From: a virus
Lineage: Duplodnaviria; Caudoviricetes
DNA: 61,782 bases
Direction: 5' to 3' (one strand)
IMG/VR virus record: IMGVR_UViG_3300023174_000175
Coordinates: 1 to 61,782 of that record
Shown: one piece after another, positions 1,405 to 51,753 of the stretch
Position numbering within the stretch: position 1 is the first letter of the stretch
Layout: the number at the start of each line of letters is the position of its first letter
Notes under the pieces: model-generated
Database searches by the model: none
Told to the model about the DNA's origin: nothing
Seen by the model: only the letters and a program-made list of their open reading frames with translations
Translations under genes and position numbers: made by a program

Positions 1405-2507
1405 GAACCCCCAAAATTGCTCATGATTCCAACCATGGCAGAACGAGGTTGGCTAACAGAAACATTTGCTTGAACCGTACCACCAAGCAACACATGTTCA
1501 GCCTCAACTTCTGCACCCAAGCCCGTGGCATAAGTAGAAAAAACATTCTCAACAGGAACCACAATTTTAGTAAAAGCATTGCCAAAAGTTTTAGCGACAC
1601 TTGCTTTACTTGTCCAGCAACTCAAAGGTTGCATACGAATAGTTTGCTTAGAATCCGTGCCATACAAACTTTCATCAGCCACATCAAACCCACGCCATAA
1701 AGTCACCGCTTTAATACCTTTTTCAGCAAACTGTTTTTGAGTTTCTTCATACATTGCGGTAGTAATTGCTTCTAAAACTTCATAGTTTTCAGACAAAATC
1801 TTTTGAACTTGAGGAGCAATCTTTTCGGGATGACCAGTGATAAAAGAATCTTGCAACCCAAAATCTTCACGGACAACATCATTTAACGCATAGTACAAAG
1901 GGTTAGAGTTTTGTAGTTTATCCCACTGTTCCATGATTTCAACTACTGCATACTGTTTAATTAATTTTTCTTTTTCTGCCACCGTTTGAGTTTCAGGATT
2001 CATAGACCTTAAAGAAGAATTGGTTTTATCAACCCAAAGAGTGTTGTAGTAAGACTGTTTAAAAATAGCATTAGGGTCGTGGATAGCCTCCATGATTTGT
2101 TTAGCAGTAGTAAATTGTCCACTACCATCTTCAGATACATAATTTATGCCACTAGAAAAATTTGTTGGAAGAATCATTGGTGTGTTGAGAAACTCTTCAA
2201 TGGGAATGTCAGCAAGATGTTTAACCACATTGTCAGATGCAACCCATGTTGTTATGTCCTCGCTACCAAAACGACCAGCATTAGGGACTTGTGCATAAAA
2301 ATCTTGACTAGAAGGTTTAGGAGCATAAGAATAATCATTTGGTTTCAGGTTATGGTCAGCCCAAGACCCGTGTGAACTCTGGTCGTGCTGACCAGCAAGA
2401 TGTTTTGATAAAAGGGAACGCCCAAGAATTTGTTCTGCCTGTTTACGATGACGCAAAGCCTCGGCACCATCAATTTCAGACAAGAAAGAATCAGTAAACC
2501 TATCCAT
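1401..2507 (-). CDS. Tagged protein with R-S-ExE ADP-ribosyltransferase-like domain
   Basis: Tag at aa 35; LWRG...LSCWTS...AKTF...EAEHVL; paralog of 55395-56750. Confidence 0.7.
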   Translation of the reverse strand: MDRFTDSFLSEIDGAEALRHRKQAEQILGRSLLSKHLAGQHDQSSHGSWADHNLKPNDYSYAPKPSSQDFYAQVPNAGRFGSEDITTWVASDNVVKHLADIPIEEFLNTPMILPTNFSSGINYVSEDGSGQFTTAKQIMEAIHDPNAIFKQSYYNTLWVDKTNSSLRSMNPETQTVAEKEKLIKQYAVVEIMEQWDKLQNSNPLYYALNDVVREDFGLQDSFITGHPEKIAPQVQKILSENYEVLEAITTAMYEETQKQFAEKGIKAVTLWRGFDVADESLYGTDSKQTIRMQPLSCWTSKASVAKTFGNAFTKIVVPVENVFSTYATGLGAEVEAEHVLLGGTVQANVSVSQPRSAMVGIMSNFGGS

Positions 2508-4890
2508 TTTCTTGTCCCGTCACTAAAAGGTCTAACACAATCCTAGTTTTATCCAACCTTTTTGCTCCCATAACCACAAAAGTAGTATTTGGAGCAATAA
2601 CGAACTCGCCTTCTCTATCATTACCCATTGTTGCACCATGAGTACCTGCTGGCATGTGAATGTTTGAAAAAACTGTTGAAGACGCTTTAAATGAATCATT
2701 AACGCTTTGATGCACACTATTAGGGGCAGAAGTTGATGTAAAACCTTTTGCTTCAAAAGTTTTCCCAACCAAGCCATTAATGTCTTCCTCAGACATTGCA
2801 GAAACTTGTTGTCTAAAAAGACTTGCCCCTGAACTCCACCTAGTAACCGTCAAATCTTGTGTTGTTTCTGTTTCATACAACGCATTTTTCAAAGACTCAA
2901 TTTGAGCGATTCCTTGTTCTTTAGGAATTTGTTCATTGTAAATAATTCTAACTGTGTCATCAATGTTGCCACTACGAAGGTAATCATTCATCCATGAGTA
3001 CCCAAAACCAACATAATTATTTCTAGCATCCATTGTTGTTGAATCAAGTCTTGAAAGGTCTAAGGCTGGAAGGTCACTCAACGAAGCAGATTTAAAACCT
3101 TCAGCACCTGCCCAATTGCCGTGCGTAGATTGGTCATGCTGACCTTGCAAGTGTTTAGACACTGCATCAGGGTTTTGAACAATTAAAGCACCAGCATTTA
3201 AAACAACCATTTCTCGGTCAGGCAAACTTCTATCGGCTGGGTCATAAAGCATTGGACTGTCATTAATTGCGTCATAGCCCATTGCCAAAGCCATAAAATT
3301 TCTAGTTGTTAATTTGTCAGTAAAAAACCAACTTGTTGGAAAATCTGTTAAAGCCGTATGGCGAAGTAAATTAATTTGAGATTCTAGCAATCCACTATTT
3401 GCCAATACCCAGTTTGCTTCAGAAGAAGGAATAGTTAAAATTTTTGCATTAGGTTTAAAAGCCATTTTAACTATTTGTTTTTCATCACCTTTATAACCCC
3501 AAATTTCAGCCTCTTTTTGCGTATGGGCACCATAAAGACCAATGCCATTTCTACCCATAGAAATGTAAGGCAACTCCGAAGCCATAAATTGTTTAATTTT
3601 ATCTTCAGCAGATAATCTAATGTTGTCTGAAGTTTCCAAATCAAAAGCAGAACCTTGCTGAAAAGTTCGCCAAAATTCCATACCCTGTGAAGTATCACCA
3701 AAAGTAGGTTTACCAGTTTTGCCTGTGGCTTTTAAAACATCTTGCAAAGTTTTACGCCAAACATCAAGGCTGTCGTATGGTTTATTTGCGTTAATTATTG
3801 ACGCAAGTTGCTCAATACTAATTTCATTTGACCCGTCACCGTTAGCCCAATTACCGTGTGAACTCTGGTCATGTTGCCCAGCAAGGTGCTTAGAAACATT
3901 AGCCAAATTATCCCATAACGGTTGCCAAATTTCATCAAATAACTTAACGGCTTTATCGCCCGTAACTGATTTAGATTGTTTTGCTCGTTTTCTAGATTCC
4001 ATAACAATTTTATTTAAATTATTATCATCATTTTTTGAAACTTCAGAATCCGAACTCCAATACGGAGTATCTAAAACAACTAAACCCGACCTATCTAAAA
4101 TGTTAAAACATTTAGTTGAAGCACCAGCACCTTCAGGAGTTTTGGTTGTGTAAAATTGAACTCCTTGTGCTGTGGCTAAAATTCCAACATCGGTAGAACC
4201 AGCCCAAACTTTAGTTGTATCTTTTATTTCCAATAATGTGTTTTTTCTTGCTGTTTTAGTTAATGCAGACAACTTTGTTTTAGGCAAAGTTACATAATCA
4301 GGTGGAATTAACATGGCTATAACCAGCCCTCTACCCTGCCCGTCACCATTGTCATAATCATTTTTTGCATAGGCTGTTGCAAGGGCTGGATTATTGGTCA
4401 CATAAGTGCCATCACCAAAATCACCAATTCCAGCATAATAATTACCAGTTTTGAATTGTTCATAAATTTGTTCCGCAGTAGCAATTAATTTGCCATCTTC
4501 ATCATAAGAATCAGTAATTCCACGAAAAACCACTTGATAACCTTGTTTACGCAATTTAGCAAACTCATCTGCTTTAACTGTTTTAGGTTTACCAGTAAAA
4601 CCTTGTCTTTCGGCTACCATCCTCAAAATGTAATCTTGATTCATTGTGCCTACGCCATGGGCTTCATCCCATTTTTCCATAGCAGTAATTTGTTTTTGCA
4701 ATTCTAAAGAAATGTTGTAACCAAAAATTTTGTATTCTTTGTCGCCTTTTTTAAAAACATTTTTTAAATGTTCAGAAATTTCTTTAGTTATGTCTTGACC
4801 AGCACCTCCAGACCATGACCCATGTGAACTCTGGTCATGCTGACCCTGAAGGTGTTTTTGAACTGGGACAATTACATAAACAGATTTCAT
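2500..4890 (-). CDS. Three-tag polyprotein: two PARP/ART-PolyVal-like modules plus a VIP2-like ADP-ribosyltransferase
   Basis: Modules: FRG...GIGDFGDGTYVT; GRNGIGLY...GYDAI...EMVVLN; YSWMNDYLR...VTR...GFTSTS...EGEFVI. Confidence 0.75.
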   Translation of the reverse strand: MKSVYVIVPVQKHLQGQHDQSSHGSWSGGAGQDITKEISEHLKNVFKKGDKEYKIFGYNISLELQKQITAMEKWDEAHGVGTMNQDYILRMVAERQGFTGKPKTVKADEFAKLRKQGYQVVFRGITDSYDEDGKLIATAEQIYEQFKTGNYYAGIGDFGDGTYVTNNPALATAYAKNDYDNGDGQGRGLVIAMLIPPDYVTLPKTKLSALTKTARKNTLLEIKDTTKVWAGSTDVGILATAQGVQFYTTKTPEGAGASTKCFNILDRSGLVVLDTPYWSSDSEVSKNDDNNLNKIVMESRKRAKQSKSVTGDKAVKLFDEIWQPLWDNLANVSKHLAGQHDQSSHGNWANGDGSNEISIEQLASIINANKPYDSLDVWRKTLQDVLKATGKTGKPTFGDTSQGMEFWRTFQQGSAFDLETSDNIRLSAEDKIKQFMASELPYISMGRNGIGLYGAHTQKEAEIWGYKGDEKQIVKMAFKPNAKILTIPSSEANWVLANSGLLESQINLLRHTALTDFPTSWFFTDKLTTRNFMALAMGYDAINDSPMLYDPADRSLPDREMVVLNAGALIVQNPDAVSKHLQGQHDQSTHGNWAGAEGFKSASLSDLPALDLSRLDSTTMDARNNYVGFGYSWMNDYLRSGNIDDTVRIIYNEQIPKEQGIAQIESLKNALYETETTQDLTVTRWSSGASLFRQQVSAMSEEDINGLVGKTFEAKGFTSTSAPNSVHQSVNDSFKASSTVFSNIHMPAGTHGATMGNDREGEFVIAPNTTFVVMGAKRLDKTRIVLDLLVTGQENG

Positions 4891-5894
4891 GCCTGTCCCC
4901 CTAAATACCTCATTTGACCAGTTTTAATCCACTCAGCATCATTTAAACCACGGTCAGGAGGCACCAGAAACGCCGTACAGCGACAATGAGGATGAGCAGG
5001 TGGCATAAGTAGCCCATTATCAAAAGCACCGTCCCAACGCACCTGAACTCCATCTAACGGGGCACACTTATCGCAAGGAGGTCCACCAGCATTATTTTTG
5101 TAAACCGTTTGCCACTGTTTCATGGAATCACCAGCAACCCAACCGCCATCAACAGCCTGTTGCCAAGCCAACTGACGACCCATGTTTTGAGCAATCTGAA
5201 TTTCGGTACGGGCAATCATTGTGGCACGGGCACGAATTAACTTTTGGCGATACCTGTCTGTCAACAAATCCGTTTTTTCAACTGCTTTTTCAGGTTTTAA
5301 ACCCTGTTTTAATAAACTTTTATAGGTACGGTCATAAAACTTGTCAACTGCCTGTGCCCAACGAGGATGCAAACCAATAACTTGACGCAACTTTTTAGCC
5401 GTGTAAGGAACCGAAATTTCTTTACTGAAAGAATCGCTAATAATTTGACGAATTGCCAAACGCATTGAATCGTTAATGGCTGTGACCAAACGCCCAGCCT
5501 GACGCTCCGCATACAAATCCGCCACGGGGTTATGAATGTTAAAAGTGAACTCACCCTTGGGTTTACCCGTCAAAGTATTAGCGTTACCCCAATCAGGTGT
5601 TGCCTCAATTAACGGTTTTATTTCCTGACCAGCCAAAACACCAGCATTATTAATAACTGCCGTAATCGAATCCCGAATAATTTGACCAATCGCGTCAACA
5701 TTAATTGTCAACAAGGCTTGCTCCAGCAAATCGGGTTGCAGATTAATAATTGCTGAAGCCAACGCATCAGCATCAGCAACTCGCCCAGCCCGATACAAAG
5801 CATTACGAATAATGTTGTATAACTGCTCTTCAGTTACATTAAAAACTGGAGGTGCAGGTACCGAAGATTTGGCTTTCCTGACTAATGGCATCAA
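4887..5894 (-). CDS. MuF-like (SPP1 gp7 / Mu gp30) head morphogenesis protein without a C-terminal toxin
   Basis: RATMIARTE, KQW, CDKC, PPAHPHCRC; directly follows the portal gene. Confidence 0.9.
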   Translation of the reverse strand: MMPLVRKAKSSVPAPPVFNVTEEQLYNIIRNALYRAGRVADADALASAIINLQPDLLEQALLTINVDAIGQIIRDSITAVINNAGVLAGQEIKPLIEATPDWGNANTLTGKPKGEFTFNIHNPVADLYAERQAGRLVTAINDSMRLAIRQIISDSFSKEISVPYTAKKLRQVIGLHPRWAQAVDKFYDRTYKSLLKQGLKPEKAVEKTDLLTDRYRQKLIRARATMIARTEIQIAQNMGRQLAWQQAVDGGWVAGDSMKQWQTVYKNNAGGPPCDKCAPLDGVQVRWDGAFDNGLLMPPAHPHCRCTAFLVPPDRGLNDAEWIKTGQMRYLGGQA

Positions 5895-5899
5895 AACCC

Positions 5900-7351
5900 C
5901 TAGAAAGCATTATCGGATTGTCCAGCATCCTGTTTGTTAGGTGCAGGTTTTTTAGCATTTGGTTTTTGTGCAGGAGGTTGAACTGCTTGACCTTGCTGTG
6001 GCGGTTGACCTGTGGTTAAAGGCAATCCTGTAGCAGGGTCAATTGCACCCGTGGTATCACCATTATGTTCAGCAGGTGGAAGTGAACCAAGTTCACGCAA
6101 ATAATCTTCAAGATTCGGGTCAGAAACAATAATTCCAGCATTAGCCAACTTGGTCACATAATCTGCAACTTCAGTCAAATCAACATGAGCAATGTCACCA
6201 TAATTCAACTTGGGAAGACGGGAAGTGTCCATTCCATTGAAACGCATCAAACGACCAATAGCATGCTGGTTAATAACTTCTGCAATGGATTTAGCAATAG
6301 CGTCAACTGCCATTGACCACAAATCCATTTTTGCGGTACCCAAAGCAAATGACCCAACATTGTCATGACCCAACAAAATAAAATCAGATAGCACCGACAT
6401 AGCAATTCGTTGGTCATAGCGAGAAATAATTTTGTCCGTATCGAACTGACGGGAACCACCAGCCGACAAAAGGGTCAAATCAAACAGTTTTTTACCAGAT
6501 TCGTCATACTGGGCAGGAAAAACCACACCCTCTTGTTCATTGCGTTTAATGTTTTGAACAATTTCAACAATGCTATTTAGTACCGCTTTTTGTGCATCTG
6601 TAGCCGTAGATGAAAGGAACTCAGGTGGAACATAAGCGACAGGAAGACCAGCCAAATCACGCTCAATACCAATTGCTTCAATTTCTTCCATACGCTTTTT
6701 AAAGAAATAAGGACGGTAAGCGTTCCGAAGCATGGAACGACCTTCAGGATTATTTTTTTGATTTGTGGTACGGAATAATAATGCTTTTTCAATTGGGACA
6801 TAATGGGTTCCACCACCTGAAGGGTCATTTTGAATCATGCAGTTCACGCCACCATCGTCATCAAATTCCCAACGCATTAAAGAATCTTGACTACGGATAG
6901 CAAATTTACGCCAACCAATTTTGCCGTCCGTGTATTGTGAACGCTTTGTTGGGTCATTTTCGTCAGGTCCAACTCGGCGTTTGTAAACAATTTCGTGGTA
7001 TGACCAACCAAAAGTAAGCATTGAAAGAATACTTGCTAAGGTTGCGTCCCAAGAATCAGACATGTCAAAAAGGCAAGATTCAATAAAATCTGCAACTTCA
7101 ACATCTTTTTCTTTAGGGTCGCCTTCGGCATTTGGCTCAATGTAAGGGTCAACTCGCCATTCAAGGCGAACAATAACTTTCTCAATTGCGTAAAGAATGG
7201 AACCAATTACAGGGTCGTTGTCAGCCATTTCACGGTAAGCACGGATACCGTTTTTGTTTCGTAACGCTGTAATGAACTCTTCAAAGACTGTGCCACCAGC
7301 ACGATGAAGCCCTGTGGAGCCTAACTCAGAAAAATCTGGTTTTGGTGCCAT
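5900..7351 (-). CDS. Portal protein (DUF935 / Mu gp29-like)
   Basis: YREMADNDP, FGWSYHEIVY, NPEGRSMLR, GIERD, GSFALG; probable start at ATG 7351. Confidence 0.88.
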   Translation of the reverse strand: MAPKPDFSELGSTGLHRAGGTVFEEFITALRNKNGIRAYREMADNDPVIGSILYAIEKVIVRLEWRVDPYIEPNAEGDPKEKDVEVADFIESCLFDMSDSWDATLASILSMLTFGWSYHEIVYKRRVGPDENDPTKRSQYTDGKIGWRKFAIRSQDSLMRWEFDDDGGVNCMIQNDPSGGGTHYVPIEKALLFRTTNQKNNPEGRSMLRNAYRPYFFKKRMEEIEAIGIERDLAGLPVAYVPPEFLSSTATDAQKAVLNSIVEIVQNIKRNEQEGVVFPAQYDESGKKLFDLTLLSAGGSRQFDTDKIISRYDQRIAMSVLSDFILLGHDNVGSFALGTAKMDLWSMAVDAIAKSIAEVINQHAIGRLMRFNGMDTSRLPKLNYGDIAHVDLTEVADYVTKLANAGIIVSDPNLEDYLRELGSLPPAEHNGDTTGAIDPATGLPLTTGQPPQQGQAVQPPAQKPNAKKPAPNKQDAGQSDNAF

Positions 7352-7423
7352 GTTCACATCCTTACAGTAAAATAAACCTTCTTGCATAATACATTGCAAA
7401 AGGCACTATCTTGAGGTGGCTCG

Positions 7424-8059
7424 CTACTTAATGTAAAGCCATGCTTCAAAATTTAATGATTTCCAAATCAACTCACCTTGCTCAAATCCAGCATCTTCAG
7501 CCATTTGTTGATTCTTTGCAGATGTGTTGGGTCGCATTAGTTTACGCAAATCTGCGTCTTTATCCAAAATTTCCATTGCATCAAAATAAGGTCTTTTATG
7601 TTGGTGCAAAGTAGATGTCAGCATTTCTTGAATTTTGCCTGATTCTGCATAAACTTTTTCAGCCCAAATGAAAGCCCCATTTGGTCGTAGTCCATCATAA
7701 ATTCTTTTTAACAATTCTTGGCGTTTAGTGCTGTCAATGAACTGCAAAGTAAAAATTGAGGTAATTAGTGAACAGTCTTCAAATCCAAAATACTCGGTTA
7801 TGTCGTAACTAAAATACTCAACAGGGGTTGGGTTAAATCTTGGTAGCAAATTTCTTGATTTATCAATCCCAATTTTTACACCATCATGCCGAACGGTTTC
7901 CAACAATTTGCCTGTACTGCAACCAATGTCAATAAAAGTTGTATCAGGTAATAAAAAGAAATCACTTAAAGTTACTACCGTGTCAAACAAAGTATCGTAA
8001 GCAGGAATTGAACTCGCTATGTGGTCATCAAAGTTTTTGACCGTATCAAAAGAAAACAT
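7424..8059 (-). CDS. cmoA: CmoA-like carboxy-SAM synthase / SAM-dependent transferase
   Basis: FSFD..FDDHI..SIPAY, DIGCSTG, FTLQFI, AEKV and KR motifs as in CmoA. Confidence 0.75.
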   Translation of the reverse strand: MFSFDTVKNFDDHIASSIPAYDTLFDTVVTLSDFFLLPDTTFIDIGCSTGKLLETVRHDGVKIGIDKSRNLLPRFNPTPVEYFSYDITEYFGFEDCSLITSIFTLQFIDSTKRQELLKRIYDGLRPNGAFIWAEKVYAESGKIQEMLTSTLHQHKRPYFDAMEILDKDADLRKLMRPNTSAKNQQMAEDAGFEQGELIWKSLNFEAWLYIK

Positions 8060-9041
8060 TTAACCCTTTACCTATTGCTTCAACAACTGGGATTGTTATT
8101 GTTCTGCCCAATCGTTCGTATCTGACATTATCGGAAACCAATGAACCATCTTCGTAATACTTAGTGAACTCATCTGGTAAACCCTGTAGCCGTTCACATT
8201 CCAACGGGGTAAGCCTACGGATGGCTACAGTTTTGCCGTCATCAATAGCAACTCCGTGCCTATCCTGAGCCGTTAAAGTAAATGCTGATTCGTTATGTTC
8301 TTTAAACCTGCGACCATTTTGGCGTTTCTCGGCACGGTTAACTGTCAAGACGGGTTTGACGGTAACAAACGGAACATTGCCACCACCTGTTCCCATTTGG
8401 GCTAAAAGAGTTGGGGATGTTGCTCCAAAGTATCGAAATCCGTTATCTCTTCGGCTCCATTGAGCAATTCCGTTTTCTGGTTCAACTTCGACAACATTCG
8501 CTGTACCTGTTCTTCCGATAGGAAATACTTTGGGTCGGGGTTTTCCTCTAAGATTTGCGACAAGGAAAATGCGTTCTCGGTGTTGTGGGACTCCAAAGTT
8601 TTCGCTGTTAAGCAATTCCCACTGGCAGTCATACCCCATCTCATCCAAGACTCCGAGGATAACTGCGAAAGTTGTTCCATTGTCGTGGTTGAGGAGTCCT
8701 TTGACATTCTCAAAAAGGATGTACGGAATTCGCTTATCTCTGGCAAGTCGGAACATTTCAAAAGCCAAAGTACCTCTTGTGTCTTCCAAAGAGAATCCAG
8801 TTCTTTTTCCTGCAACTGAGAAAGTTGCACAAGGAAATCCTCCAACGATGAGGTCGGCATCAGGGAGGTCGCTGGCGGAAATAGTCCGAACATCTCTTCC
8901 ATCTGGTTGTTCGCCAAATTGTCGTTCATAAATCCTCCGTGGTGCTTTTTCCCATTCGTTTGCCCATACACAAGTATGACCAGTGCGTTCCAGCCCTAGC
9001 CGAAACGCACCGATACCTGCAAAAAGTTCAATAAATTTCAT
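8046..9041 (-). CDS. DNA cytosine-C5 methyltransferase-family enzyme (motif X GN changed to GR; candidate carboxymethyltransferase)
   Basis: LFAGIG, GGFPC, ENVKG, QHRERIF, RRLTPLECERLQG, RYERLGRT. Confidence 0.92.
   Translation of the reverse strand: MKFIELFAGIGAFRLGLERTGHTCVWANEWEKAPRRIYERQFGEQPDGRDVRTISASDLPDADLIVGGFPCATFSVAGKRTGFSLEDTRGTLAFEMFRLARDKRIPYILFENVKGLLNHDNGTTFAVILGVLDEMGYDCQWELLNSENFGVPQHRERIFLVANLRGKPRPKVFPIGRTGTANVVEVEPENGIAQWSRRDNGFRYFGATSPTLLAQMGTGGGNVPFVTVKPVLTVNRAEKRQNGRRFKEHNESAFTLTAQDRHGVAIDDGKTVAIRRLTPLECERLQGLPDEFTKYYEDGSLVSDNVRYERLGRTITIPVVEAIGKGLNVFF
8402..8971 (-). CDS. Nested alternative-frame ORF inside the C5-MTase (resembles the beta subunit of split MTases)
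   Basis: 189-aa open frame ending SLSQILEENPDPKYFLS; true start uncertain. Confidence 0.5.
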   Translation of the reverse strand: MYGQTNGKKHHGGFMNDNLANNQMEEMFGLFPPATSLMPTSSLEDFLVQLSQLQEKELDSLWKTQEVLWLLKCSDLPEISEFRTSFLRMSKDSSTTTMEQLSQLSSESWMRWGMTASGNCLTAKTLESHNTENAFSLSQILEENPDPKYFLSEEQVQRMLSKLNQKTELLNGAEEITDFDTLEQHPQLF

Positions 9042-9217
9042 TGACCAATTTGTTCAATTTTTGTTGCTTGAACTGGTGGCGACCATGTTGACCAAGCATC
9101 GGAACGAAACGCAATTCGTCCAATGTCGGTGCCCCATGTTGTGACAAGGATTTGTGAACCGTCAACCATGTCAAAAATGTAGTTGCGTCCAACTGCTGTT
9201 TCTTCTTGTTCGCTCAT
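9038..9217 (-). CDS. Hypothetical protein (59 aa)
   Basis: MSEQEETAVGR...IGQ; stop overlaps the MTase ATG (ATGA). Confidence 0.65.
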   Translation of the reverse strand: MSEQEETAVGRNYIFDMVDGSQILVTTWGTDIGRIAFRSDAWSTWSPPVQATKIEQIGQ

Positions 9218-9345
9218 TATTTTTGTCCTGCCTTATGATTTTTGCGTTCCATCTCAATAAGTGAAACGGCTTCTTCCATGGTTATTAAATCTTCTTGTTG
9301 AGATTTAATAATGTCTATGATTAATTGAATTAATTTTGAACTCAA
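9217..9345 (-). CDS. Hypothetical protein (42 aa, TTG start)
   Basis: AGGAAGGAC RBS upstream; TAATG coupling to the next gene. Confidence 0.5.
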   Translation of the reverse strand: MSSKLIQLIIDIIKSQQEDLITMEEAVSLIEMERKNHKAGQK

Positions 9346-9398
9346 TTTTTCGTCCTTCCTGTTTGGGGTATTGCCAGACTAACACACTTAAAGGTTAG

Positions 9399-9653
9399 TT
9401 ACAATTCTTTGGGTTTATTGTCATCTTTAGCCTGACATTTGCAATTATCACTTTCGCAACCGCCAACAACATCCCAATCAAACATGTCCCACTCAACAAC
9501 TTTAGGCTCACGCTTAGGGAGGCTATTGCGAATCCAACTCAAAGCCGTCATAACCAACGCAATCCAACCAAGAATTTGAACAGTGTATTCATGCCAATAA
9601 AAAGCCAAACCAACAATTGTGCCATTGACCGCAAACTTAAAATAACCGTACAT
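9399..9653 (-). CDS. Small membrane protein
   Basis: Two hydrophobic segments; coupled to ssb. Confidence 0.65.
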   Translation of the reverse strand: MYGYFKFAVNGTIVGLAFYWHEYTVQILGWIALVMTALSWIRNSLPKREPKVVEWDMFDWDVVGGCESDNCKCQAKDDNKPKEL

Positions 9654-10072
9654 TAGAACGGAAATTCTTCAGACGGTGCAGGTGTAGCCCAAGGGTCAAC
9701 TTCTTTAGAACGATTAGAACCCGAACCCTTATTAATACTCACAGGGTCACGCTTCAAATCAACTGCAACATTGTAAGCCTGAATTTGCATAGCCCCACCT
9801 TTGTTGCCTTCTTTGTTTTCCCATTCTTTCCAAGATGCCTTGCCGTAAACAACAACGGGGGAACCCTTGGTCAAAGATTCAGCAACATTTTCGCCCAACT
9901 TGTCCCAAGCAGAAACACGCCAAGCCGTTACATCGGTTGATTCCCAACCAGAATCTGTTTTCTTAGATGTTGAAGTTAGAACTGTAAAAGTTGCTACAGC
10001 CTTACCTTCTTTAGTAAATCGCAACTCAGGGTCGCCAGCAAGATTCCCGATTACGGTTACATTTGCACTCAT
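9653..10072 (-). CDS. ssb: Single-stranded DNA-binding protein
   Basis: VIGNLAGDPELRFT, AENV-like ENVAESL, acidic EEFPF tail; actinobacterial style. Confidence 0.95.
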   Translation of the reverse strand: MSANVTVIGNLAGDPELRFTKEGKAVATFTVLTSTSKKTDSGWESTDVTAWRVSAWDKLGENVAESLTKGSPVVVYGKASWKEWENKEGNKGGAMQIQAYNVAVDLKRDPVSINKGSGSNRSKEVDPWATPAPSEEFPF

Positions 10073-10401
10073 TCGTTTTCCTTTTCCTTTTGGAGTTCTT
10101 TAATCAAAGCCCTTTTTTCACGGGCTTTAATTGCTTGAGGTGTTGTTGACAAAAACTCAAAAATTGGTTTTGCAACAATTCCCCTAGTCTTTCTTATCAC
10201 TTTTCGTTGCGGATAGGTAGTACCGCCCCAAATTCCTTGAACATCAGTTTGTACAGCGTACTCCAAGCATTCCTCAAGGAAGTGACATTTTTTGCAAATT
10301 TCCATTGCATCACGGTTTGCTCGTATAAGCGAACCATCTGGAAACCACATCTCTGGGTCAACTTGGGCACAAAGTTGCGACCCATCAAACTTTGGGTACA
10401 A
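10069..10401 (-). CDS. whiB: WhiB-family Fe-S transcription factor
   Basis: CAQVDPEMWFP...CKKC...CLEYA...GIWGG. Confidence 0.95.
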   Translation of the reverse strand: MYPKFDGSQLCAQVDPEMWFPDGSLIRANRDAMEICKKCHFLEECLEYAVQTDVQGIWGGTTYPQRKVIRKTRGIVAKPIFEFLSTTPQAIKAREKRALIKELQKEKENE

Positions 10402-10665
10402 CTAATCTTCCTCTTCTTCTGAAGATAAGATTTCGTCCAACTCAGATTGTGATTTTGCCAGAATCCCAACATGATGCCACGGTGGTGCCTTGTCATCGGT
10501 TAAAGTAACGGTGTAATACTCACCATTAATTGCAACCCATTCCGTTGCCAAAACCCACGCTGTTGAAAGTGCCCCTTCAGGAAACATTTCTTTTTGGATT
10601 TCGTACAGCATGTTGTCCACGGGGGACTTTTCTGACGCTTCAACAGCATCATCATCTTTTGGCAT
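10402..10665 (-). CDS. Hypothetical acidic protein
   Basis: ORF fitting the operon. Confidence 0.7.
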   Translation of the reverse strand: MPKDDDAVEASEKSPVDNMLYEIQKEMFPEGALSTAWVLATEWVAINGEYYTVTLTDDKAPPWHHVGILAKSQSELDEILSSEEEED

Positions 10666-10674
10666 GCACCTATT

Positions 10675-10803
10675 CTATTGTTTGTCCTTCAAGTTCTTAA
10701 GCAACTCGCAAGTTGAGCATTTTCCCAATTTCAACATTGGCTCCCAAACACGATGCCCACAATCGGGACAATCAACAATTTTGGTGTCGGGCAATTCCGA
10801 CAT
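10675..10803 (-). CDS. Small CxxC...CxxC zinc-ribbon protein (42 aa)
   Basis: MSELPDTKIVDCPDCGHR...CSTC. Confidence 0.55.
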   Translation of the reverse strand: MSELPDTKIVDCPDCGHRVWEPMLKLGKCSTCELLKNLKDKQ

Positions 10804-10805
10804 AA

Positions 10806-11285
10806 TTAATACCAGCCCTGCCGATTATGAAAATCTAACGCTGAACATGGTGTGCCGTAACGATTTTGGATGTAACCAATTCCCCAACGGATTTGGGTTT
10901 TGCCGTTCGTAAGGTAATCGGCACCAGCAGAACGCATTTTTGATGCAGGTAACGCTTGTGGAATGCCATGGGCACCTGAACTGGAATTGTGTGCCCGTGG
11001 ATTCCAGCCTGATTCCTGATTCCACAATTTCACCAAGCAAGAATGTTGGTGTGAACTCCAACCCCGTTTAACGCCCTGAGAACGGGCATAGGAGCGTAAA
11101 GAAACCTTTACTGGTGGCTTTGTATGGGCAATTACTGAAACTGCCTGAGATTTGTTTTTAGCATCGTATTTGGCTAGGGCAACTGCGTCCGAGTATTCCA
11201 ATGAGCCACAAAACCCAATTGCCAAAAATACTAAAAATGCGTAAAAGGTATTTACAACCGCTTTTCCTCGTTTGGTTAATTTCAT
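10806..11285 (-). CDS. Lytic transglycosylase (Rpf/APF-like) with N-terminal TM
   Basis: WNQESGWN, SGAHGIPQALP, QIRWGIGYIQNRYG, GWY. Confidence 0.9.
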   Translation of the reverse strand: MKLTKRGKAVVNTFYAFLVFLAIGFCGSLEYSDAVALAKYDAKNKSQAVSVIAHTKPPVKVSLRSYARSQGVKRGWSSHQHSCLVKLWNQESGWNPRAHNSSSGAHGIPQALPASKMRSAGADYLTNGKTQIRWGIGYIQNRYGTPCSALDFHNRQGWY

Positions 11286-11842
11286 GATTCCTCCGTGTGT
11301 CCACAGTTGCTACATGTGTGAATGCGTTTCTTACGCCCGTGAGGGCTTGTCTGACGCTCGTTGACGAACTCAGGTAACACATACACCGCAGAACGACTGC
11401 GTTTTTCTACTAGGCGATTTATTCGGTTTTCTAGGTGCAGAACCGACAACACACTTGTTGCTTGACCATGATGCCAGCCAAAGTGGGAAGCCAACTCTTT
11501 CCAAGTTAAGCCCAGAATACCAGCACCAGCCAACGCCTTAATTGTGTCTTTTTGTCGCTTACTGGTTGTACCGTCCAAATCTTCAGCAATAGCACGGGCT
11601 TTAGAAGTTTCAGAACCTGACCAGCCCGAAGTGTCGGCGTATGGCAAAAGTGGGAAATCTGCATTAAAATTATTTGCGACCCAATCTGTTTGTGGGGTTA
11701 ACGCATTGACGAACTGCTCTAGTGCTTCAAAGCGTCCACAATCGGAGCAGACACGGGTTTTATTATCTGTCCGAGATAGGGCTGGTGGAACTTTACTGAT
11801 GTCGCCACATCGGGGACATTTGAATGGGGGTTGCTGGGTCAT
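11282..11842 (-). CDS. Zinc-finger/HTH hypothetical protein
   Basis: CPRC..ALSRTDN..CSDC; LTWKELA..GWHHG; C-terminal CSNC. Confidence 0.7.
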   Translation of the reverse strand: MTQQPPFKCPRCGDISKVPPALSRTDNKTRVCSDCGRFEALEQFVNALTPQTDWVANNFNADFPLLPYADTSGWSGSETSKARAIAEDLDGTTSKRQKDTIKALAGAGILGLTWKELASHFGWHHGQATSVLSVLHLENRINRLVEKRSRSAVYVLPEFVNERQTSPHGRKKRIHTCSNCGHTEES

Positions 11843-11843
11843 G

Positions 11844-12005
11844 TTAAACGCCTACTGCTTTCAGTTCGTAGCCTTCATACTTAAAAGCCCAATCAGCCGA
11901 GTATGAATGATTTTTGTGGATGTATGCGAGAACCCCTATCCAATCGTCAAATAATTGAATAGGTTTTCCGTCACGAAATAGTTGGTATTTTATTTGCTCT
12001 GACAT
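11844..12005 (-). CDS. Hypothetical protein
   Basis: AGGAAGGA RBS before ATG 12005. Confidence 0.65.
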   Translation of the reverse strand: MSEQIKYQLFRDGKPIQLFDDWIGVLAYIHKNHSYSADWAFKYEGYELKAVGV

Positions 12006-15610: not shown

Positions 15611-16027
15611 ATGAAGAAACCCCTAATAGCCGTAATCGGCTCTGCACTGCTGGTGCTGTCACTAACCGCTTGCGGTGGTGGGTCAACATCAGCCACGGAT
15701 ACAACAAGCACCACAGACACTACTGCTGTTGAAACTCCAATTGATGTCCCAGTTGATAGTGGATACACAAACGCTGAAGACGAATTTTTGTTTGATGTAC
15801 ATAATGTTGATAACCCAGTTATTGAAAAAAACACAGATAAACAAATTTTGGAAACTGGTCACATTGTTTGCGACACATTAGATTCTGGTGAAACCGTTAC
15901 CACAATTTCTAATTACTTAACCTCAACAGGTGACTATGAAGGTGATACCGCAATTGAATTTGTGGCATCAATGGTTGTTGGTGCAGTAATCAATCTTTGC
16001 CCCGAATACAAATACCAGTTGCCGTAA
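15611..16027 (+). CDS. DUF732-like lipoprotein
   Basis: Signal peptide with lipobox LTAC, Thr-rich linker, GHIVCDTL..G...AVINLCP. Confidence 0.85.
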   Translation: MKKPLIAVIGSALLVLSLTACGGGSTSATDTTSTTDTTAVETPIDVPVDSGYTNAEDEFLFDVHNVDNPVIEKNTDKQILETGHIVCDTLDSGETVTTISNYLTSTGDYEGDTAIEFVASMVVGAVINLCPEYKYQLP

Positions 16028-24319: not shown

Positions 24320-24561
24320 TCTTGCTCACCGTCTAACGCTTTGATTGTTGGACATGGATAAGGGGTCAGGTATTCTTCCATTCCTTGCTCTACCGAACAT
24401 TCCAAACACCAAATTGTCACACCATGAAGCACACTGTCTTTTACATAATGCTGATTGGTGTCTTCGTATGGTTTGTGCAATTCTCGAACTCGTTGAATGG
24501 CTGATTCTGCAATTTTTAAGCGTTCTAGGGCTTTACGCACATACTCGGTAGTAAATCTCAT
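24316..24561 (-). CDS. LH..CxxC..YPCPT zinc-binding protein
   Basis: RVRELHKP..CLEC..YPCPT; start at 24561 (ATGA overlap). Confidence 0.7.
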   Translation of the reverse strand: MRFTTEYVRKALERLKIAESAIQRVRELHKPYEDTNQHYVKDSVLHGVTIWCLECSVEQGMEEYLTPYPCPTIKALDGEQE

Positions 24562-25745
24562 GAATAAATTATGCCCTGCTCTGGTATTTGTAAGCGGTAA
24601 CTGATGTCTTCGTGTGTTAATCCTGCACACCATCTGTTTATGTCTGCTTTGGGCATACGGAATGCGAATGAGCCAACTTTGCATGTCACTTTCCCTGTGG
24701 TGTCGGGTGCTGGGTTTGGTGCCCCTCCACCTAATAATTCGGCTACATCGGCTGGTTCGTATCCTGTGCCTTTCCAATCGGGTAGGGAACTGATTAGGAG
24801 CCGTAATGCTTCCCTGTCGTATGTTCCGTGGTCGCTGGTGCGGTTATCTACTAAAACTATGCGTGAGGCTTCATCGTCTGTGCATTGAATGTAGGTGACA
24901 GCGATTTGTTTCCAGCCGAGGGCTTTGACGGCTTGGTAGGTGTGGTTTCCTGCGAGGATTGTTCCGTCTGTTCGGGCTACGATGGGTCGGTATTGTCCGA
25001 GTTCTTGGAGGGATTGGGCGATTGCTCCGATGTCCCCTTCTCGTGGGTTTTGTGGGTATGGGCGTAGGGTGTCTATGTCTGCGAGGACTGCTTCGACTCG
25101 TTCTGGTGGGCTTAGTAATGTCGCTGGGTCGTTGTACATTGGCATCGGTGGTGTGGGTAATTGGAGCCATTCCTTGATTGTGGCTATGACTCTTGGGCGT
25201 TTCTGGTCTGAGTCTGCCAGTATTGCCTCTTCCCACGCTTCGTAGATTTGTGCATCTAGAGTCCCCCTGAACTTACCTAACACAAGTTGGTATTCGTCAT
25301 CTTGTGCTTCACGCATTGGTTTGTCATCTGGAGTGAATGGGCTGTTTAGGAGTTCGCTGAGATTAGCAAGGTCATCATCTGTGAATCCTGTCCCTGCAAG
25401 GTCGGGGAGTTCACTAAGCATGCCAAAAAGTGCGTCTTCATTGTATGAACTCAAGTCGGAGGTGCGATTGTCTGCAATCATGATTTTCTTGGCTGTGGTT
25501 TCATCTACATCTACCCACACGACAGCGATTTGAGTCCACCGTAGTTTCTTAACTGCTTTGTATGTGTGATTACCTGCGAGTATGCAGTTATCACGCTTGT
25601 TCACCACTATGGGCTTGTATTGCCCGTGTTTGTCTAGGGACTCAGCAATCTTGTCAATGTCACCGCGTCTAGCGTTTTGTGGATGGGGCGTGATTGAGTT
25701 CACTGGCACTGTTTCAGTTTCAGTGATTCTAATGTTGTTGCCCAT
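24558..25745 (-). CDS. Tandem ParB-like N-terminal domain protein
   Basis: Two repeats of PQN.R.GDI..IA.SL...GQY.PIV...ILAGNHTY.A...DNRTSD. Confidence 0.88.
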   Translation of the reverse strand: MGNNIRITETETVPVNSITPHPQNARRGDIDKIAESLDKHGQYKPIVVNKRDNCILAGNHTYKAVKKLRWTQIAVVWVDVDETTAKKIMIADNRTSDLSSYNEDALFGMLSELPDLAGTGFTDDDLANLSELLNSPFTPDDKPMREAQDDEYQLVLGKFRGTLDAQIYEAWEEAILADSDQKRPRVIATIKEWLQLPTPPMPMYNDPATLLSPPERVEAVLADIDTLRPYPQNPREGDIGAIAQSLQELGQYRPIVARTDGTILAGNHTYQAVKALGWKQIAVTYIQCTDDEASRIVLVDNRTSDHGTYDREALRLLISSLPDWKGTGYEPADVAELLGGGAPNPAPDTTGKVTCKVGSFAFRMPKADINRWCAGLTHEDISYRLQIPEQGIIYS

Positions 25746-48153: not shown

Positions 48154-48348
48154 TTAACGACTTTGATAAAAACCAGTAGATGAACCGTGTTTGGAAACTT
48201 TGGTTGCACCCGTAATTACTCTTTTGGTTGAACCATTACCAATACGCAAATTCAAAGTAGTTTGATTAGTTACACCAGTAACAATCGCATGATAAACACG
48301 ACCAGATTCACGATAACGAACTGAAGTACCAACTTTAAAAACTTGCAT
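48154..48348 (-). CDS. Hypothetical basic protein
   Basis: TAATG coupling to dps. Confidence 0.6.
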   Translation of the reverse strand: MQVFKVGTSVRYRESGRVYHAIVTGVTNQTTLNLRIGNGSTKRVITGATKVSKHGSSTGFYQSR

Positions 48349-48845
48349 TACATCCCCAAACTAGAACGAAGTTGCCAATCCCATTTTTTGTGCATGTCAA
48401 TGCGTTCAGCAAGAAAATTAGCCACACCCTGCTCATTAGACGAGTTTGCAGAAGTGAAAGCCATGTTTAATGTATTAATAAGTTGAAGGTTTGCCTTCTG
48501 CAAATCTGATGCCATGGAACGGGGGTCATCAGCAGAACCAATGGTGGTTTCTGGCAGGGTTCGGTAAGCAATAAAATCTGACAACTTAAATGGTGCATCA
48601 ACGCCAAGTTTCAACATGTTTTCAGCCATTGGGTCAATTGAACTGTAAACATCTTCATAGATAGATTCAAAAAGTTCGTGGTATTGAGCAAAATCCGAAC
48701 CTTTAACATTCCAATGAAAGCCATGGGCACGAGTGTAAAAAGTGACAACATCAGCCAAGGCTGTACGCAATAACGAGGCAACATCGCCAACGGCTTTATT
48801 TATTGCTCCAAAAGGAACATAATCACTATCGTTAGTCAGAAACAT
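48348..48845 (-). CDS. dps: Dps/ferritin-like protein
   Basis: HGFHWNVKG..F...HELF..IY...D..AE; H.K..WQL. Confidence 0.93.
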   Translation of the reverse strand: MFLTNDSDYVPFGAINKAVGDVASLLRTALADVVTFYTRAHGFHWNVKGSDFAQYHELFESIYEDVYSSIDPMAENMLKLGVDAPFKLSDFIAYRTLPETTIGSADDPRSMASDLQKANLQLINTLNMAFTSANSSNEQGVANFLAERIDMHKKWDWQLRSSLGM

Positions 48846-49635
48846 CTTCGTCAGAAACCTTTACATCTTTTTTGGGCTTCTTCTTTTGCCCACCCATAAC
48901 AGTATCCACATGAACAGTGTTCACTGTAGGACCCGACACGGTAGATGAACTGTCTTCTTTAGCAACTGGCAAATCAACCTCAAGACGCTGGGCACGACCA
49001 CCAATCGAATAACCCATCAACTTTCCAGCCTTAACCATTTCCCAAGCCCATGGTTCCCAAACAACGCCAAGAAAAACAGTGTCCTTGGGGAAAGTAACAT
49101 CTTCCATAGTTCCATCAGATTTTTGCATAGGAACTGAAACTTCGTAAGGCCATGCCATGACCTCAACCCATTCACCAGCAACAACATCTTTATTGTGCTG
49201 AAGTCGGATACGGCGGTCATCTTTACGCACATAATCCCAAACCGATTTCTGCAACTCAGCAGAATCCGTCCACTCACCATGAGCATCAACACGGTCAGGA
49301 ACATACATTGGACCTAGGGTGTATCGGTTTTCACTAACAGCCTTGGAAACCAATGACATTTGCGGAGTTTCATCAATAGAGAATTGGTCATAAAAACCTT
49401 TACCGTTATGAGCCAATGATGAAGCCTCAAAAATGTCTATTTCGCCATCTTCAAAAGTTTCCCACTCATTTACAGGAGCAATCATTTGTCCTTCTTCAAA
49501 GTTTTTATTAAAATCTTGAGAAATTTCTTCATAGGCTTGTTTGAACTCAGCCGTATCTGGTAATCCTGCTTGAGCCAATGTGTTACCGTAAGCAACAGCA
49601 TTAGTAATGACATTTAATTGCTGAACTGTAATCAT
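48832..49635 (-). CDS. XkdF-like prohead serine protease
   Basis: YVPDRVDAHGE, LQH, W..VK.GKLMGYSIGG. Confidence 0.85.
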   Translation of the reverse strand: MITVQQLNVITNAVAYGNTLAQAGLPDTAEFKQAYEEISQDFNKNFEEGQMIAPVNEWETFEDGEIDIFEASSLAHNGKGFYDQFSIDETPQMSLVSKAVSENRYTLGPMYVPDRVDAHGEWTDSAELQKSVWDYVRKDDRRIRLQHNKDVVAGEWVEVMAWPYEVSVPMQKSDGTMEDVTFPKDTVFLGVVWEPWAWEMVKAGKLMGYSIGGRAQRLEVDLPVAKEDSSSTVSGPTVNTVHVDTVMGGQKKKPKKDVKVSDEDVSD

Positions 49636-51716
49636 TATGCATGTCCCTTCTCAATAAAATTATCCCACATACCTTGATTAAACACAACTTTGGGAGTGTT
49701 TTTACCGCCTTGTGCAATTACAGTAGCGTTAAAACCTTCAGTGCTAACCAATTTCCATTCATCAAAAGCGTTTGCTTCAAAAGCCAAAGGAGCCGTAAGA
49801 CTAACACCTTTATGAATTTTACGGATGACACTATGGGGAACATAACGGCGTTCAGTTTTAGCCCTGTTATTAGAACGCCGAATTGCTTCACTAACAGAAA
49901 CTGTCGCGTAAAAGGCTTTAACAACATAACCCTTTTGCCGAGCAGTATCAATCTTGCCAAGAAGATTTTCAAATTTGCCATTGCCCGTACTGTCATAAAC
50001 AATGTCTGCTCTTTTAGCCAAACCTGCTTTTTCAATTGCCTTAGCCAACATGGAAGATTCTTCATGAGTGTGAGTGCCAGCACCCTTAAAATCAGCCATA
50101 GAGGTGCTGGTAGACATTCTTTTCATTTCGGGAATCATAGTTTTAACCATGTCAGCATTAACCTGAACAGCATCACCGCTAGAAATAAAAGCATCCGTAG
50201 CAGGGTCAGTGATTGGTTGTGGAACTCCCACTTTACCTTTACGAATCATTGTGGTTTTACCTGAAGCAGGTCCACCACCAATTAGATAATAAGTGGGATT
50301 TTTTTGACTCTTAGTTCCATCAACAAAAGTATGCACAATTTCCTCATGAAGTTTTAATCTTTCAGGAGTAAAAACATACTTTAATTGCCCATTGGTAGTT
50401 GTGTAATTAGGGTTAGGCATCAAATGATGCCAAGCAGAATCGCTAGGAGTAATTGATTCAGAACCACCCCACTCTTTCCCAGTGATTGCTTCAGGAATAC
50501 CGTACTTGTAGCCACCAGTTGCTTCAGGAGTAGAAGTGCCACGCTTAACACCACCATAATTACCGCCACCCTCAGCAGTGTCACGATAAATTTTATTAGA
50601 ACCTGCTTCTGGAGCATGCAAACCTTCACCAGCAGGTGATTTAGCCCATGACCCGTGAGTTGACTGGTCATGCTGACCAGCAAGGTGTTTCAATAACGGA
50701 ATAGTGCTTAATTGAGGAATAGGGTCAACTAACAAACGGCGGTATCTGCGTTTACTACCATTTAAAGCATCAAAAAATCCTGCATCCGTAACAATTTGGT
50801 CAGCATAAACACCATTAGTTAGTGAATCAGAACCTTTACGAAAATTATCCAACAAACCATGTAATTCTTCATGCCGTTTCATAACAGCAGGAATGGCAAA
50901 AGGATTTGAATTAGTGCGTTTCAACTCACGACCAGAATCGTAACCATCATTGTAGGACAAACGAACAGTTTTTTTGCTCAAAATTTTAGTGATTGCTTGA
51001 AAATCCGAACCACTAACAGAAGAGCCGTGTGCCCAATCCCCGTGAGTTGACTGGTCATGTTTGCCCTGCATGTGTTTAGACATGCCATTTAATAAATTTT
51101 CAGGAATTATCCAAAACTTGCATAAAGCACAATGGTCAATTTGCCCCTCAACAATTTCACAACCTTGACCACCTTCATAAAATACACAATTTGCACACAT
51201 TAAACCTTCAGACATGAAAGGATTTTCTTCCATGTAATGTGCCCCGTTAGCACCGCAACCTTTATTGAACTTACCAACGGTTTCGGTTAAAGATTCCAAA
51301 AATTCATAAATTGCAGATTGGGTTTCATTTAGTGCATCTTCAGGTTCAGGGTCATTCATGTTCATTGGGGCATCTTTAGCCACCGTATCGAATTTTAAAG
51401 TGTAACCATCAACAGTCAAAATAGTGGTTTTAGAAACAGATTCAGGATAACCCAACTCAACATTGACCGTATCAACCACATCAGAAGGGATGCCATCAAA
51501 CGCTTTATTTACAGGAACATTGTTTTCAACGCCAACTTCAATAACAGCACGATTCCACTCATCGCCTTTATGTCCATGGTCTAAACCACGAACCAGCAAC
51601 TCCGTTGTGACAAGATGGTGGGCTTGAACTTTTACAGGGTCAGCAACATCAGCATGCAAAGACTTATGTAACACTTCCAAATCAGCATTACTTAAATTAG
51701 TTAAATCAAATGACAT
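49635..51716 (-). CDS. Two-tag polyprotein: HiPIP-like Cys domain, short module, zeta-toxin/AAA_33 kinase
   Basis: CANCVFY..C..V.G.I..CALCKFW; GGGPASGKTT, VNAD..K, HEESS, YDST. Confidence 0.8.
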   Translation of the reverse strand: MSFDLTNLSNADLEVLHKSLHADVADPVKVQAHHLVTTELLVRGLDHGHKGDEWNRAVIEVGVENNVPVNKAFDGIPSDVVDTVNVELGYPESVSKTTILTVDGYTLKFDTVAKDAPMNMNDPEPEDALNETQSAIYEFLESLTETVGKFNKGCGANGAHYMEENPFMSEGLMCANCVFYEGGQGCEIVEGQIDHCALCKFWIIPENLLNGMSKHMQGKHDQSTHGDWAHGSSVSGSDFQAITKILSKKTVRLSYNDGYDSGRELKRTNSNPFAIPAVMKRHEELHGLLDNFRKGSDSLTNGVYADQIVTDAGFFDALNGSKRRYRRLLVDPIPQLSTIPLLKHLAGQHDQSTHGSWAKSPAGEGLHAPEAGSNKIYRDTAEGGGNYGGVKRGTSTPEATGGYKYGIPEAITGKEWGGSESITPSDSAWHHLMPNPNYTTTNGQLKYVFTPERLKLHEEIVHTFVDGTKSQKNPTYYLIGGGPASGKTTMIRKGKVGVPQPITDPATDAFISSGDAVQVNADMVKTMIPEMKRMSTSTSMADFKGAGTHTHEESSMLAKAIEKAGLAKRADIVYDSTGNGKFENLLGKIDTARQKGYVVKAFYATVSVSEAIRRSNNRAKTERRYVPHSVIRKIHKGVSLTAPLAFEANAFDEWKLVSTEGFNATVIAQGGKNTPKVVFNQGMWDNFIEKGHA

Positions 51717-51753
51717 TTGAACTCCTTCCCGACAGAATAGCAAACAAAATTAA

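Follow-up and report, generated by a model that had tools for sequence, protein, structure and literature searches.

A phage gene pair predicted to write 5-carboxymethylcytosine: a divergent relative of the CmoA–CmoX system

The IMG/VR virus record IMGVR_UViG_3300023174_000175 represents an uncultured freshwater phage and was analysed as a whole (61,782 bases, rated 100% complete by CheckV; hereafter the window). Its minus strand carries a homologue of the DNA cytosine-C5 methyltransferases with 331 amino acids (8046..9041), followed by a CmoA-like gene encoding 211 amino acids (7424..8059). This locus raises the question of whether the two proteins make carboxy-S-adenosylmethionine (carboxy-SAM, or Cx-SAM) from S-adenosylmethionine (SAM) and use it to place 5-carboxymethylcytosine (5cxmC) in the phage DNA as a defence against restriction. 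A preliminary description of the locus had deduced such a pathway. The deduction appears well founded in the homology to Synechococcus phage S-B43, the diagnostic residues and the gene pairing, but the idea was already in print: both natural 5cxmC and the CmoA–CmoX pair were reported for S-B43 in December 2025 (Yang et al., Nat Commun 2025, PMC12783734). From homology at 28–36% identity and the conserved context, we consider it probable that the gene pair is a CmoX–CmoA module writing 5cxmC in phage DNA. The pair is a divergent further example of the published system rather than a discovery and, judged by its sequence, it belongs to a large family of uncultured freshwater phages.

The methyltransferase homologue and its CmoA-like partner

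The assignment of the 331-residue protein as a CmoX-like DNA cytosine-C5 (carboxy)methyltransferase draws on matches to PF00145 (E 4.3e-71, residues 1–326) and TIGR00675 (259.9 bits) and on homology to M.HhaI and to SpCmoX, the S-B43 enzyme. M.HhaI is the nearest solved relative, with 173 bits and E 6.9e-50 for the whole chain; of this, the stretch of residues 1–162 scores 161.5 bits (E 2.1e-46). M.HaeIII is also among the solved matches (114 bits). The motifs for attack at C5 are complete, comprising C71 (HhaI Cys81), E111-N-V and Q153-H-R-E-R157. The target-recognition region between motifs VIII and IX (approximately residues 163–250) aligns with none of the solved enzymes.

Two positions of the cofactor pocket are substituted. 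In motif IV (P70-C71-A72; 8826..8834, minus strand), the catalytic cysteine is followed by alanine instead of the glutamine of PCQ. A72 aligns with Gln82 of M.HhaI, and the equivalent motif in SpCmoX is PCS. The second substitution lies in motif X (E309-R310-L311-G312-R313; 8103..8117, minus strand), within RYERLGRTITIPVV, which starts at residue 307. R313, the arginine of LGRT, occupies the asparagine position of GN and is encoded by AGA at 8103–8105, which confirms the motif X arginine of the preliminary description. HMMER aligns it with Asn304 of M.HhaI (FGNSV vs LGRTI), while MAFFT aligns it with Arg350 of SpCmoX. The surrounding ERxGR replaces the K-x-x-G-N of ordinary enzymes, so that Glu and Arg stand four and three positions ahead of the substituted arginine, and is common to the CmoA-adjacent enzymes of the window, S-B43, S-CRM01, PaBG and TurkishDelight. 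The PCQ glutamine is gone from all five of these enzymes, which read PCA in the window and PCS, PCK or PCA elsewhere. The third HhaI position altered by engineers, Tyr254, aligns with Q259 here and is Ser in SpCmoX, but the alignment is of low confidence and is given little weight.

The functional meaning of these positions is indicated by work on two other enzymes. In M.HhaI, Gln82, Tyr254 and Asn304 were modelled as crowding an enlarged transferable group, and Q82A is described as lowering methyl transfer by about 16-fold while helping the transfer of larger groups (Lukinavicius et al. 2012, PMC3526304). In SpCmoX, the residue equivalent to HhaI Asn304 is Arg350, which touches the carboxymethyl group in crystal structure 8YF3; the enzyme is reported to accept Cx-SAM only and to write 5cxmC at GC sites, and its R350N variant to be inactive with either cofactor (PMC12783734). 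The S-B43 methyltransferase open reading frame (ORF) is identical in sequence to PDB 8YF3, and the window protein shares 28% identity with it (E 7e-17).

The two substitutions occur together among relatives. The nearest 150 of 1.84 billion cluster representatives at 50% identity were aligned and their motif residues counted: 129 combine PCQ with GN, seven combine PCA with GR, and none combines PCQ with GR. The other 14 are fragments or rows with other residues, among them a C-terminal fragment with GR (P0188) and a 233-residue fragment with PCA and a doubtfully aligned GN (P0124). The motif IV and motif X sites therefore covary strictly, beyond chance. GFPCAT together with YER[CLM]GRT[IV] is found in all 120 of the best matches used from a search of 90%-identity clusters (59–98% identity).

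The pairing with CmoA is equally regular. In IMG/VR, 124 stretches encode a relative of the methyltransferase, and the locus counts given here and below cover the best 80 of them. GFPCAT and ER[CL]GR are present in all 80, and in 79 the methyltransferase stop codon lies only a few bases from the start of a CmoA-like ORF; in the lone exception (L068), the sequence ends 24 nucleotides past the methyltransferase. A scan of cellular genome contigs yielded only three loci, weak or fragmentary, on short contigs of metagenome-assembled genomes, and so gave no pointer to the host. In the window, the methyltransferase gene runs 14 nucleotides into the CmoA-like gene (8046..8059, minus strand). The preliminary description had mentioned an overlap, which is annotated here from the ORF coordinates as translational coupling. 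A similar overlap exists in the closest relatives (enzymes about 79–98% identical, e.g. L004–L011 and L030), whereas more distant relatives have a gap of a few bases.

A further pocket variant beside a phage CmoA occurs in Staphylococcus phages. The C5-methyltransferases adjacent to CmoA in vB-SscS-F1 and an SPbeta-like phage (L084:5485-6492, L085:4669-5667) keep PCQ and have, at the motif X position, Gly, which is neither Asn nor Arg (VVGGVIN). In vB-SscS-F1, an unannotated gene of 816 nucleotides lies between CmoA and the methyltransferase.

For the 211-residue partner protein, CmoA is the best match in every library searched. The best solved relatives are the E. coli CmoA structures 4IWN (E 1.7e-27) and 4GEK (E 4.4e-27), the PHROG match is phrog_4752 (E 5.8e-56), and SpCmoA aligns over its full length at 36% identity (E 3e-46). 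The best NCBIfam match, TIGR00740 (E 2e-33), reaches 116 bits against a cut-off of 193.3 bits. Because SpCmoA, whose activity is biochemically proven, scores 115.6 bits, this cut-off, by the scores compared, leaves out true phage CmoAs. SpCmoA is reported to produce Cx-SAM from SAM and prephenate with a kcat of 2.33 per s, compared with 0.23 for E. coli CmoA (PMC12783734). The cofactor-holding residues of E. coli CmoA were named by Byrne et al. 2013 (PMC3663124), who assigned Arg199 as the key carboxylate partner. Residue correspondence was taken from a HMMER alignment to 4GEK, with the numbering offset checked at Tyr39, Asp62 and Asn132. The SAM-binding residues Tyr39 (Y21), Asp62 (D44), Gly64 (G46), Ser66 (S48), Asp89 (D66), Asp117 (D86) and Phe137 (F107) are all kept in the window protein and conserved in 61–67 of 67 family members. 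On this basis, the protein is annotated as a phage-type CmoA and predicted carboxy-SAM synthase.

Cofactor, chemistry and end product

In the proposed pathway, the CmoA-like enzyme would convert SAM and prephenate to carboxy-SAM, as its homology to SpCmoA and E. coli CmoA suggests. The transferase would then flip the target cytosine out of the DNA, Cys71 would attack C6, and the carboxymethyl group of carboxy-SAM would be moved onto C5. Arg313 would bind the extra carboxylate of the cofactor, while Ala72, in place of the PCQ glutamine, would make room for the larger group and disfavour plain methyl transfer. A subsequent beta-elimination would free the DNA bearing 5cxmC, and this base at the target sites of the enzyme would render the phage DNA resistant to host restriction enzymes. 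The HhaI restriction enzyme is reported to be blocked by 5cxmC (PMC12783734). The steps of this scheme are borrowed from the SpCmoX structure and the work on M.HhaI; the residues and the gene pairing are what is observed for the window proteins.

Several points weigh against this assignment. The whole case depends on homology at 28–36% identity. The published survey picked its 5,615 CmoX candidates by 'SPPC' (S95 P96 P97 C98) plus R350, alongside 2,251 ligases (PMC12783734), and the window enzyme lacks a literal 'SPPC': it reads G68-F69-P70-C71, as do all 120 homologues, and only P-C is common to both. Its methyltransferase is much nearer to M.HhaI (173 bits) than to SpCmoX, which is absent from the PDB matches at E <= 1e-10. 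In the CmoA-like protein, E. coli Arg199 lies opposite D168, so that the carboxylate-binding arginine is not at its usual position, and E. coli Asn132 corresponds to Ile102 (Leu in SpCmoA). The CmoA-like protein encoded downstream of the methyltransferase at two loci, L025 and L038, has just about 22% identity to that of the window and is without R172. Finally, by the restriction-site counts given below, the genome is nearly devoid of several C-containing palindromes (AGCT, CCGG, GCGC and GGCC) that an enzyme modifying GC broadly would shield. The counts suggest that not all GC-containing sites are fully protected and that modification does not dispense with site avoidance.

The displaced arginine had been raised as a caveat in the preliminary description, which noted the segment DKDADLRK. 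Phage CmoAs do show this shift, yet it provides no argument against carboxy-SAM synthesis. In the 4GEK and SpCmoA alignments, the helix K167-D168-A-D-L-R172 (7544..7561, minus strand) places R172 opposite E. coli Glu203, so that the arginine and the acidic residue are swapped, one helical turn apart. The active SpCmoA has an equivalent helix (MDKEKELR, compared with LDKDADLR in the window), defining a phage type K-(D/E)-x3-R, and the caveat is removed because a biochemically active enzyme has the matching arrangement. The related loci provide 67 complete CmoA-like ORFs; all 67 keep K167 and an Asp or Glu at position 168, and 65 keep R172. From this conservation and the SpCmoA pattern only, we infer that R172 may take over carboxylate binding. 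The divergent proteins at L025:7000-7548 and L038:5651-6178 have a methyltransferase fold with Glu or Cys at the R172 position. The neighbouring methyltransferases nevertheless keep GFPCAT and ERCGR, and L038 additionally has an upstream CmoY-like gene. The divergence at these two loci indicates that the pairing is not uniform across the family.

Two alternative accounts concern the cofactor and the chemistry. The methyltransferase could be an ordinary SAM-dependent enzyme making 5-methylcytosine, with the CmoA-like gene acting in the modification of tRNA, in depleting SAM as a counter-defence or in carboxymethylating another molecule. The N-terminal half is about as similar to M.HhaI (E 6.9e-50) as that of many true methyltransferases, PC, ENV and QxRxR are all intact, and phage CmoA genes occur without an adjacent C5-methyltransferase (within 4 kb on either side) in the phages Y3 and Afa-NA1. 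Nevertheless, the motif X asparagine and the motif IV glutamine are replaced jointly in every member and never singly. Q82A alone lowers HhaI methylation about 16-fold (PMC3526304), and SpCmoX, with the same arginine, is described as not using SAM (PMC12783734). CmoA adjoins the enzyme in 79 of the 80 loci, and the Pfam and PHROG scans revealed no CmoB homologue. Taken together, ordinary methylation is highly improbable. A similarly slim chance is given to a CmoA-like enzyme that makes another SAM derivative, from which the transferase would add a different acidic group to cytosine. The aspartate at the Arg199 position (D168), the TIGR00740 score under the cut-off and the loss of Asn132 would all fit such an enzyme. 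SpCmoA, however, has equivalent changes (Glu at 199, Arg one turn on, Leu at 132) and a sub-threshold score, and is nevertheless reported to make Cx-SAM about 10 times faster than E. coli CmoA (PMC12783734).

The remaining alternative concerns the end product. In S-B43, the CmoY ligase is reported to add glycine to 5cxmC, and the virion DNA to contain no free 5-carboxymethyldeoxycytidine (5cxmdC; PMC12783734). In the window, 5cxmC could likewise be an intermediate only, hypermodified later by a phage or host enzyme unrelated to CmoY; the coupled 59-residue ORF upstream of the methyltransferase, a protein with two ParB_N domains (both described below) or an unrecognised ligase would be candidates, and many window ORFs have no recognisable family. 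CmoY-like homologues of asparagine synthetase lie directly upstream of the methyltransferase at three of the 80 loci (L009, L010 and L038), 74 of which have at least 850 nucleotides of sequence upstream of that gene. Two of these genes, L009:3-536 and L010:976-1815, accompany methyltransferases that are about 79–84% identical to that of the window. At L010, the genes run from a single-stranded DNA-binding protein to methyltransferase, CmoA and portal in the same order as in the window, the methyltransferase is 79% identical, and the CmoY-like protein (279 residues) is 28% identical to SpCmoY. At the corresponding position, the window has just the 59-residue ORF and a short gap. The comparison of these sequences indicates that gain or loss of the CmoY-like ligase occurs even between phages that are very closely related.

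Searches for a ligase in the window returned only negative results. A tblastn search of the whole window with SpCmoY and the CmoY-like protein of L010 gave only noise (best E 2.7), in a record that is 100% complete, and families of AMP-forming ligases, ATP-grasp enzymes or amidotransferases were absent from the Pfam scan of its 85 ORFs and from the PHROG scan of 36 of them. CmoY-like genes are also rare, at just three of the 80 loci, and in the published survey well under half of the CmoX contigs are credited with a ligase (2,251 vs 5,615; PMC12783734). Later hypermodification is therefore unlikely in our judgement, though less remote than the two accounts of the chemistry. Since the complete genome has no CmoY-type ligase, 5cxmC itself is probably the end product in the window phage, unlike the glycine amide of S-B43.

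Lineage, restriction pressure and genome context

A quick maximum-likelihood tree of 63 rows placed the window clade (12 rows, support 100) among the Asn-type enzymes and far from four SPPC-type enzymes. An approximately unbiased (AU) test did not reject a single clade of all 16 Arg-type rows (p-AU 0.775), the tree held to this clade being 22.3 log-likelihood units better. When the two Staphylococcus rows and the trait columns (A72, E309–T314) were removed, the held tree was 0.87 units better (p-AU 0.531), and the free tree of this repeat test needs two changes of the Arg trait. Both AU tests are compatible with one clade of Arg-type enzymes, and a convergent, two-fold origin of the arginine is accordingly not claimed.

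More tentatively, and with rather less than even confidence, the GFPC-A/ERxGR enzymes of the window and its many freshwater relatives may constitute a second, naturally occurring branch of DNA carboxymethyltransferases that falls outside the 'SPPC' set. They would have arisen from HhaI-like methyltransferases through two alterations of the pocket also introduced by engineering (a small residue for Gln82 and replacement of Asn304), would have their own target, and would leave bare 5cxmC as the final base in actinobacterial phages whose hosts may make no carboxy-SAM. Hosts without their own carboxy-SAM would explain why CmoA adjoins the methyltransferase in 79 of the 80 loci.

Short palindromes are avoided to an extreme degree throughout the genome. 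AGCT, GATC, CCGG and ATAT are absent from all 61,782 bases, where about 97–217 of each are expected, and ACGT has a single occurrence where about 194 would be expected. GCGC (12 found vs ~83 expected), GGCC (31 vs ~155), TCGA (42 vs ~145) and TATA (25 vs ~95) are depleted, GCWGC, CTGCAG and GTGCAC have no occurrences, and CCWGG has three; CGCG, GTAC, TGCA, CATG, CTAG, TTAA and AATT are near expectation. The near-clearance of so many restriction sites indicates that restriction pressure on the phage is strong. The avoidance of GCGC argues against this sequence as the protected site. Incomplete modification, comparable with the estimated 75% of GC sites modified in S-B43 (PMC12783734), could reconcile modification with avoidance.

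Two further genes bear on the host. A WhiB-type regulator is encoded at 10069..10401 (minus strand, E 9e-15) and a DUF732 protein at 15611..16027 (plus strand, E 6.2e-6), two gene types characteristic of Actinobacteria. Kavagutti et al. 2019 (PMC6802176) relied on whiB to recognise phages of actinobacteria in freshwater metagenomes. On the whiB marker alone, the host is probably an actinobacterium, and the G+C content of only 41.6% points to one of the low-GC freshwater type. By megablast, positions 5000–12000 of the window have no match among 50,697 phage records, and, by this comparison of sequences, the phage has no close cultured relative.

The 59-residue ORF (9038..9217, minus strand) overlaps the methyltransferase start with its stop codon by 4 nucleotides and may be a member of the operon. 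It has no match in Pfam or PHROG, and a homologue stands at the equivalent place in eight of the 80 loci. A scan of positions 5800–10800 found promoter and terminator sites no more often than in shuffled sequences and thus gave no operon boundaries. The protein with two ParB_N domains (24558..25745, minus strand; two stretches matching PF02195, E 8e-15; phrog_8071, E 1.1e-92) is encoded 16.5 kb away from the gene pair in the window. A homologue is present in 50 of the 80 loci, with a median start at +1713 nucleotides from the methyltransferase start, and in most relatives it lies directly downstream of CmoA. ParBc proteins are also reported on many CmoX contigs (PMC12783734).

Other genes of the window were recorded in passing. 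Two large ORFs, 1401-2507 and 2500-4890 (both minus strand), adjoin the MuF-like and portal genes; one has a DRAT-like domain (E 2.9e-6), and the other is a 796-residue protein with a C-terminal ADP-ribosyltransferase exoenzyme domain (PF03496, E 8.9e-12). Genes of these types in freshwater phages are described by Kavagutti et al. 2019 (PMC6802176). Within the structural region, three ORFs, all on the minus strand, encode a 702-residue protein that includes a kinase domain of the Zeta-toxin/AAA_33 type (49635-51743; E 7.5e-19), a protein resembling ferritin/Dps (48348-48845; E 6.5e-14) and a 900-residue protein whose PHROG match is named 'ParB C-terminal domain' (51851-54553; E 7.8e-35).

Significance and comparison with known systems

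The main meaning of the locus is that it confirms the CmoA–CmoX system as widespread; the chemistry itself is no longer new. The family with the motif X arginine extends past the 'SPPC' signature to HhaI-like enzymes that share just 28% identity with SpCmoX, and a three-part signature (PC followed by a residue other than Gln, ERxGR, and an adjacent CmoA) picks out such enzymes more generally. The window phage, whose complete genome encodes no CmoY-like ligase, is a good candidate for one in which 5cxmC is the final base. The compact enzyme of 331 residues, with its different target-recognition region, could offer a carboxymethyltransferase of new specificity for DNA labelling.

Compared with M.HhaI, the window enzyme shares the catalytic cysteine, ENV and QxRxR. 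M.HhaI, a GCGC methyltransferase, uses SAM with Gln82 and Asn304, whereas the window enzyme has Ala72 and Arg313, and these two natural substitutions fall at two of the three M.HhaI positions engineered for larger groups (Q82A/Y254S/N304A; PMC3526304). The engineered CpG carboxymethyltransferase M.MpeI N374K, as cited in Yang et al. (PMC12783734), resembles the window enzyme in having a basic residue at the motif X asparagine that is tied to carboxy-SAM use and 5cxmC. It differs in that its lysine is engineered and its carboxy-SAM comes from the CmoA of its host, while the window enzyme has a natural arginine and its own CmoA.

The window CmoA resembles bacterial CmoA (4IWN, 4GEK; PMC3663124) in its fold and SAM-binding residues. 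In the bacterial CmoA/CmoB pathway, which leads to 5-carboxymethoxyuridine (cmo5U) in tRNA, the acceptor is 5-hydroxyuridine (ho5U) of tRNA, whereas the acceptor predicted here is DNA cytosine, and none of the window ORFs matched CmoB in the Pfam and PHROG scans. In the jumbo phages vB_EamM_Y3 of Erwinia (L087) and Afa-NA1 of Alcaligenes (L090), a CmoA homologue is present, and the 4 kb on either side of it include no annotated C5-methyltransferase; the genes next after CmoA in Y3 are annotated 'asparagine synthase' and 'oxygenase'. In these phages, carboxy-SAM may serve an acceptor other than DNA cytosine, or the transferase may be encoded elsewhere.

The closest parallel is S-B43, from which the window pair is separated by identities of only 28% (CmoX) and 36% (CmoA). 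The motif IV of the window is GFPC-A and that of S-B43 is SPPC-S, and the gene order is X then A with the 14-nucleotide overlap in the window and A-Y-X in S-B43. The window is without the CmoY ligase, whereas S-B43 has it and ends in 5-glycylcarboxymethylcytosine. S-B43 is a 214-kb T4-like cyanophage whose enzyme targets GC; the window phage has a genome of 61.8 kb, encodes WhiB and probably infects actinobacteria. In both phages, a CmoA homologue adjoins a C5-methyltransferase homologue, the motif X arginine (R313, R350) lies inside ERxGR, the PCQ glutamine is gone, and CmoA has the phage-type helix K-(D/E)-x3-R. Both are further linked by the association with ParB-domain proteins, seen for the window in its relatives, and by 5cxmC as product with an anti-restriction role, both predicted for the window.

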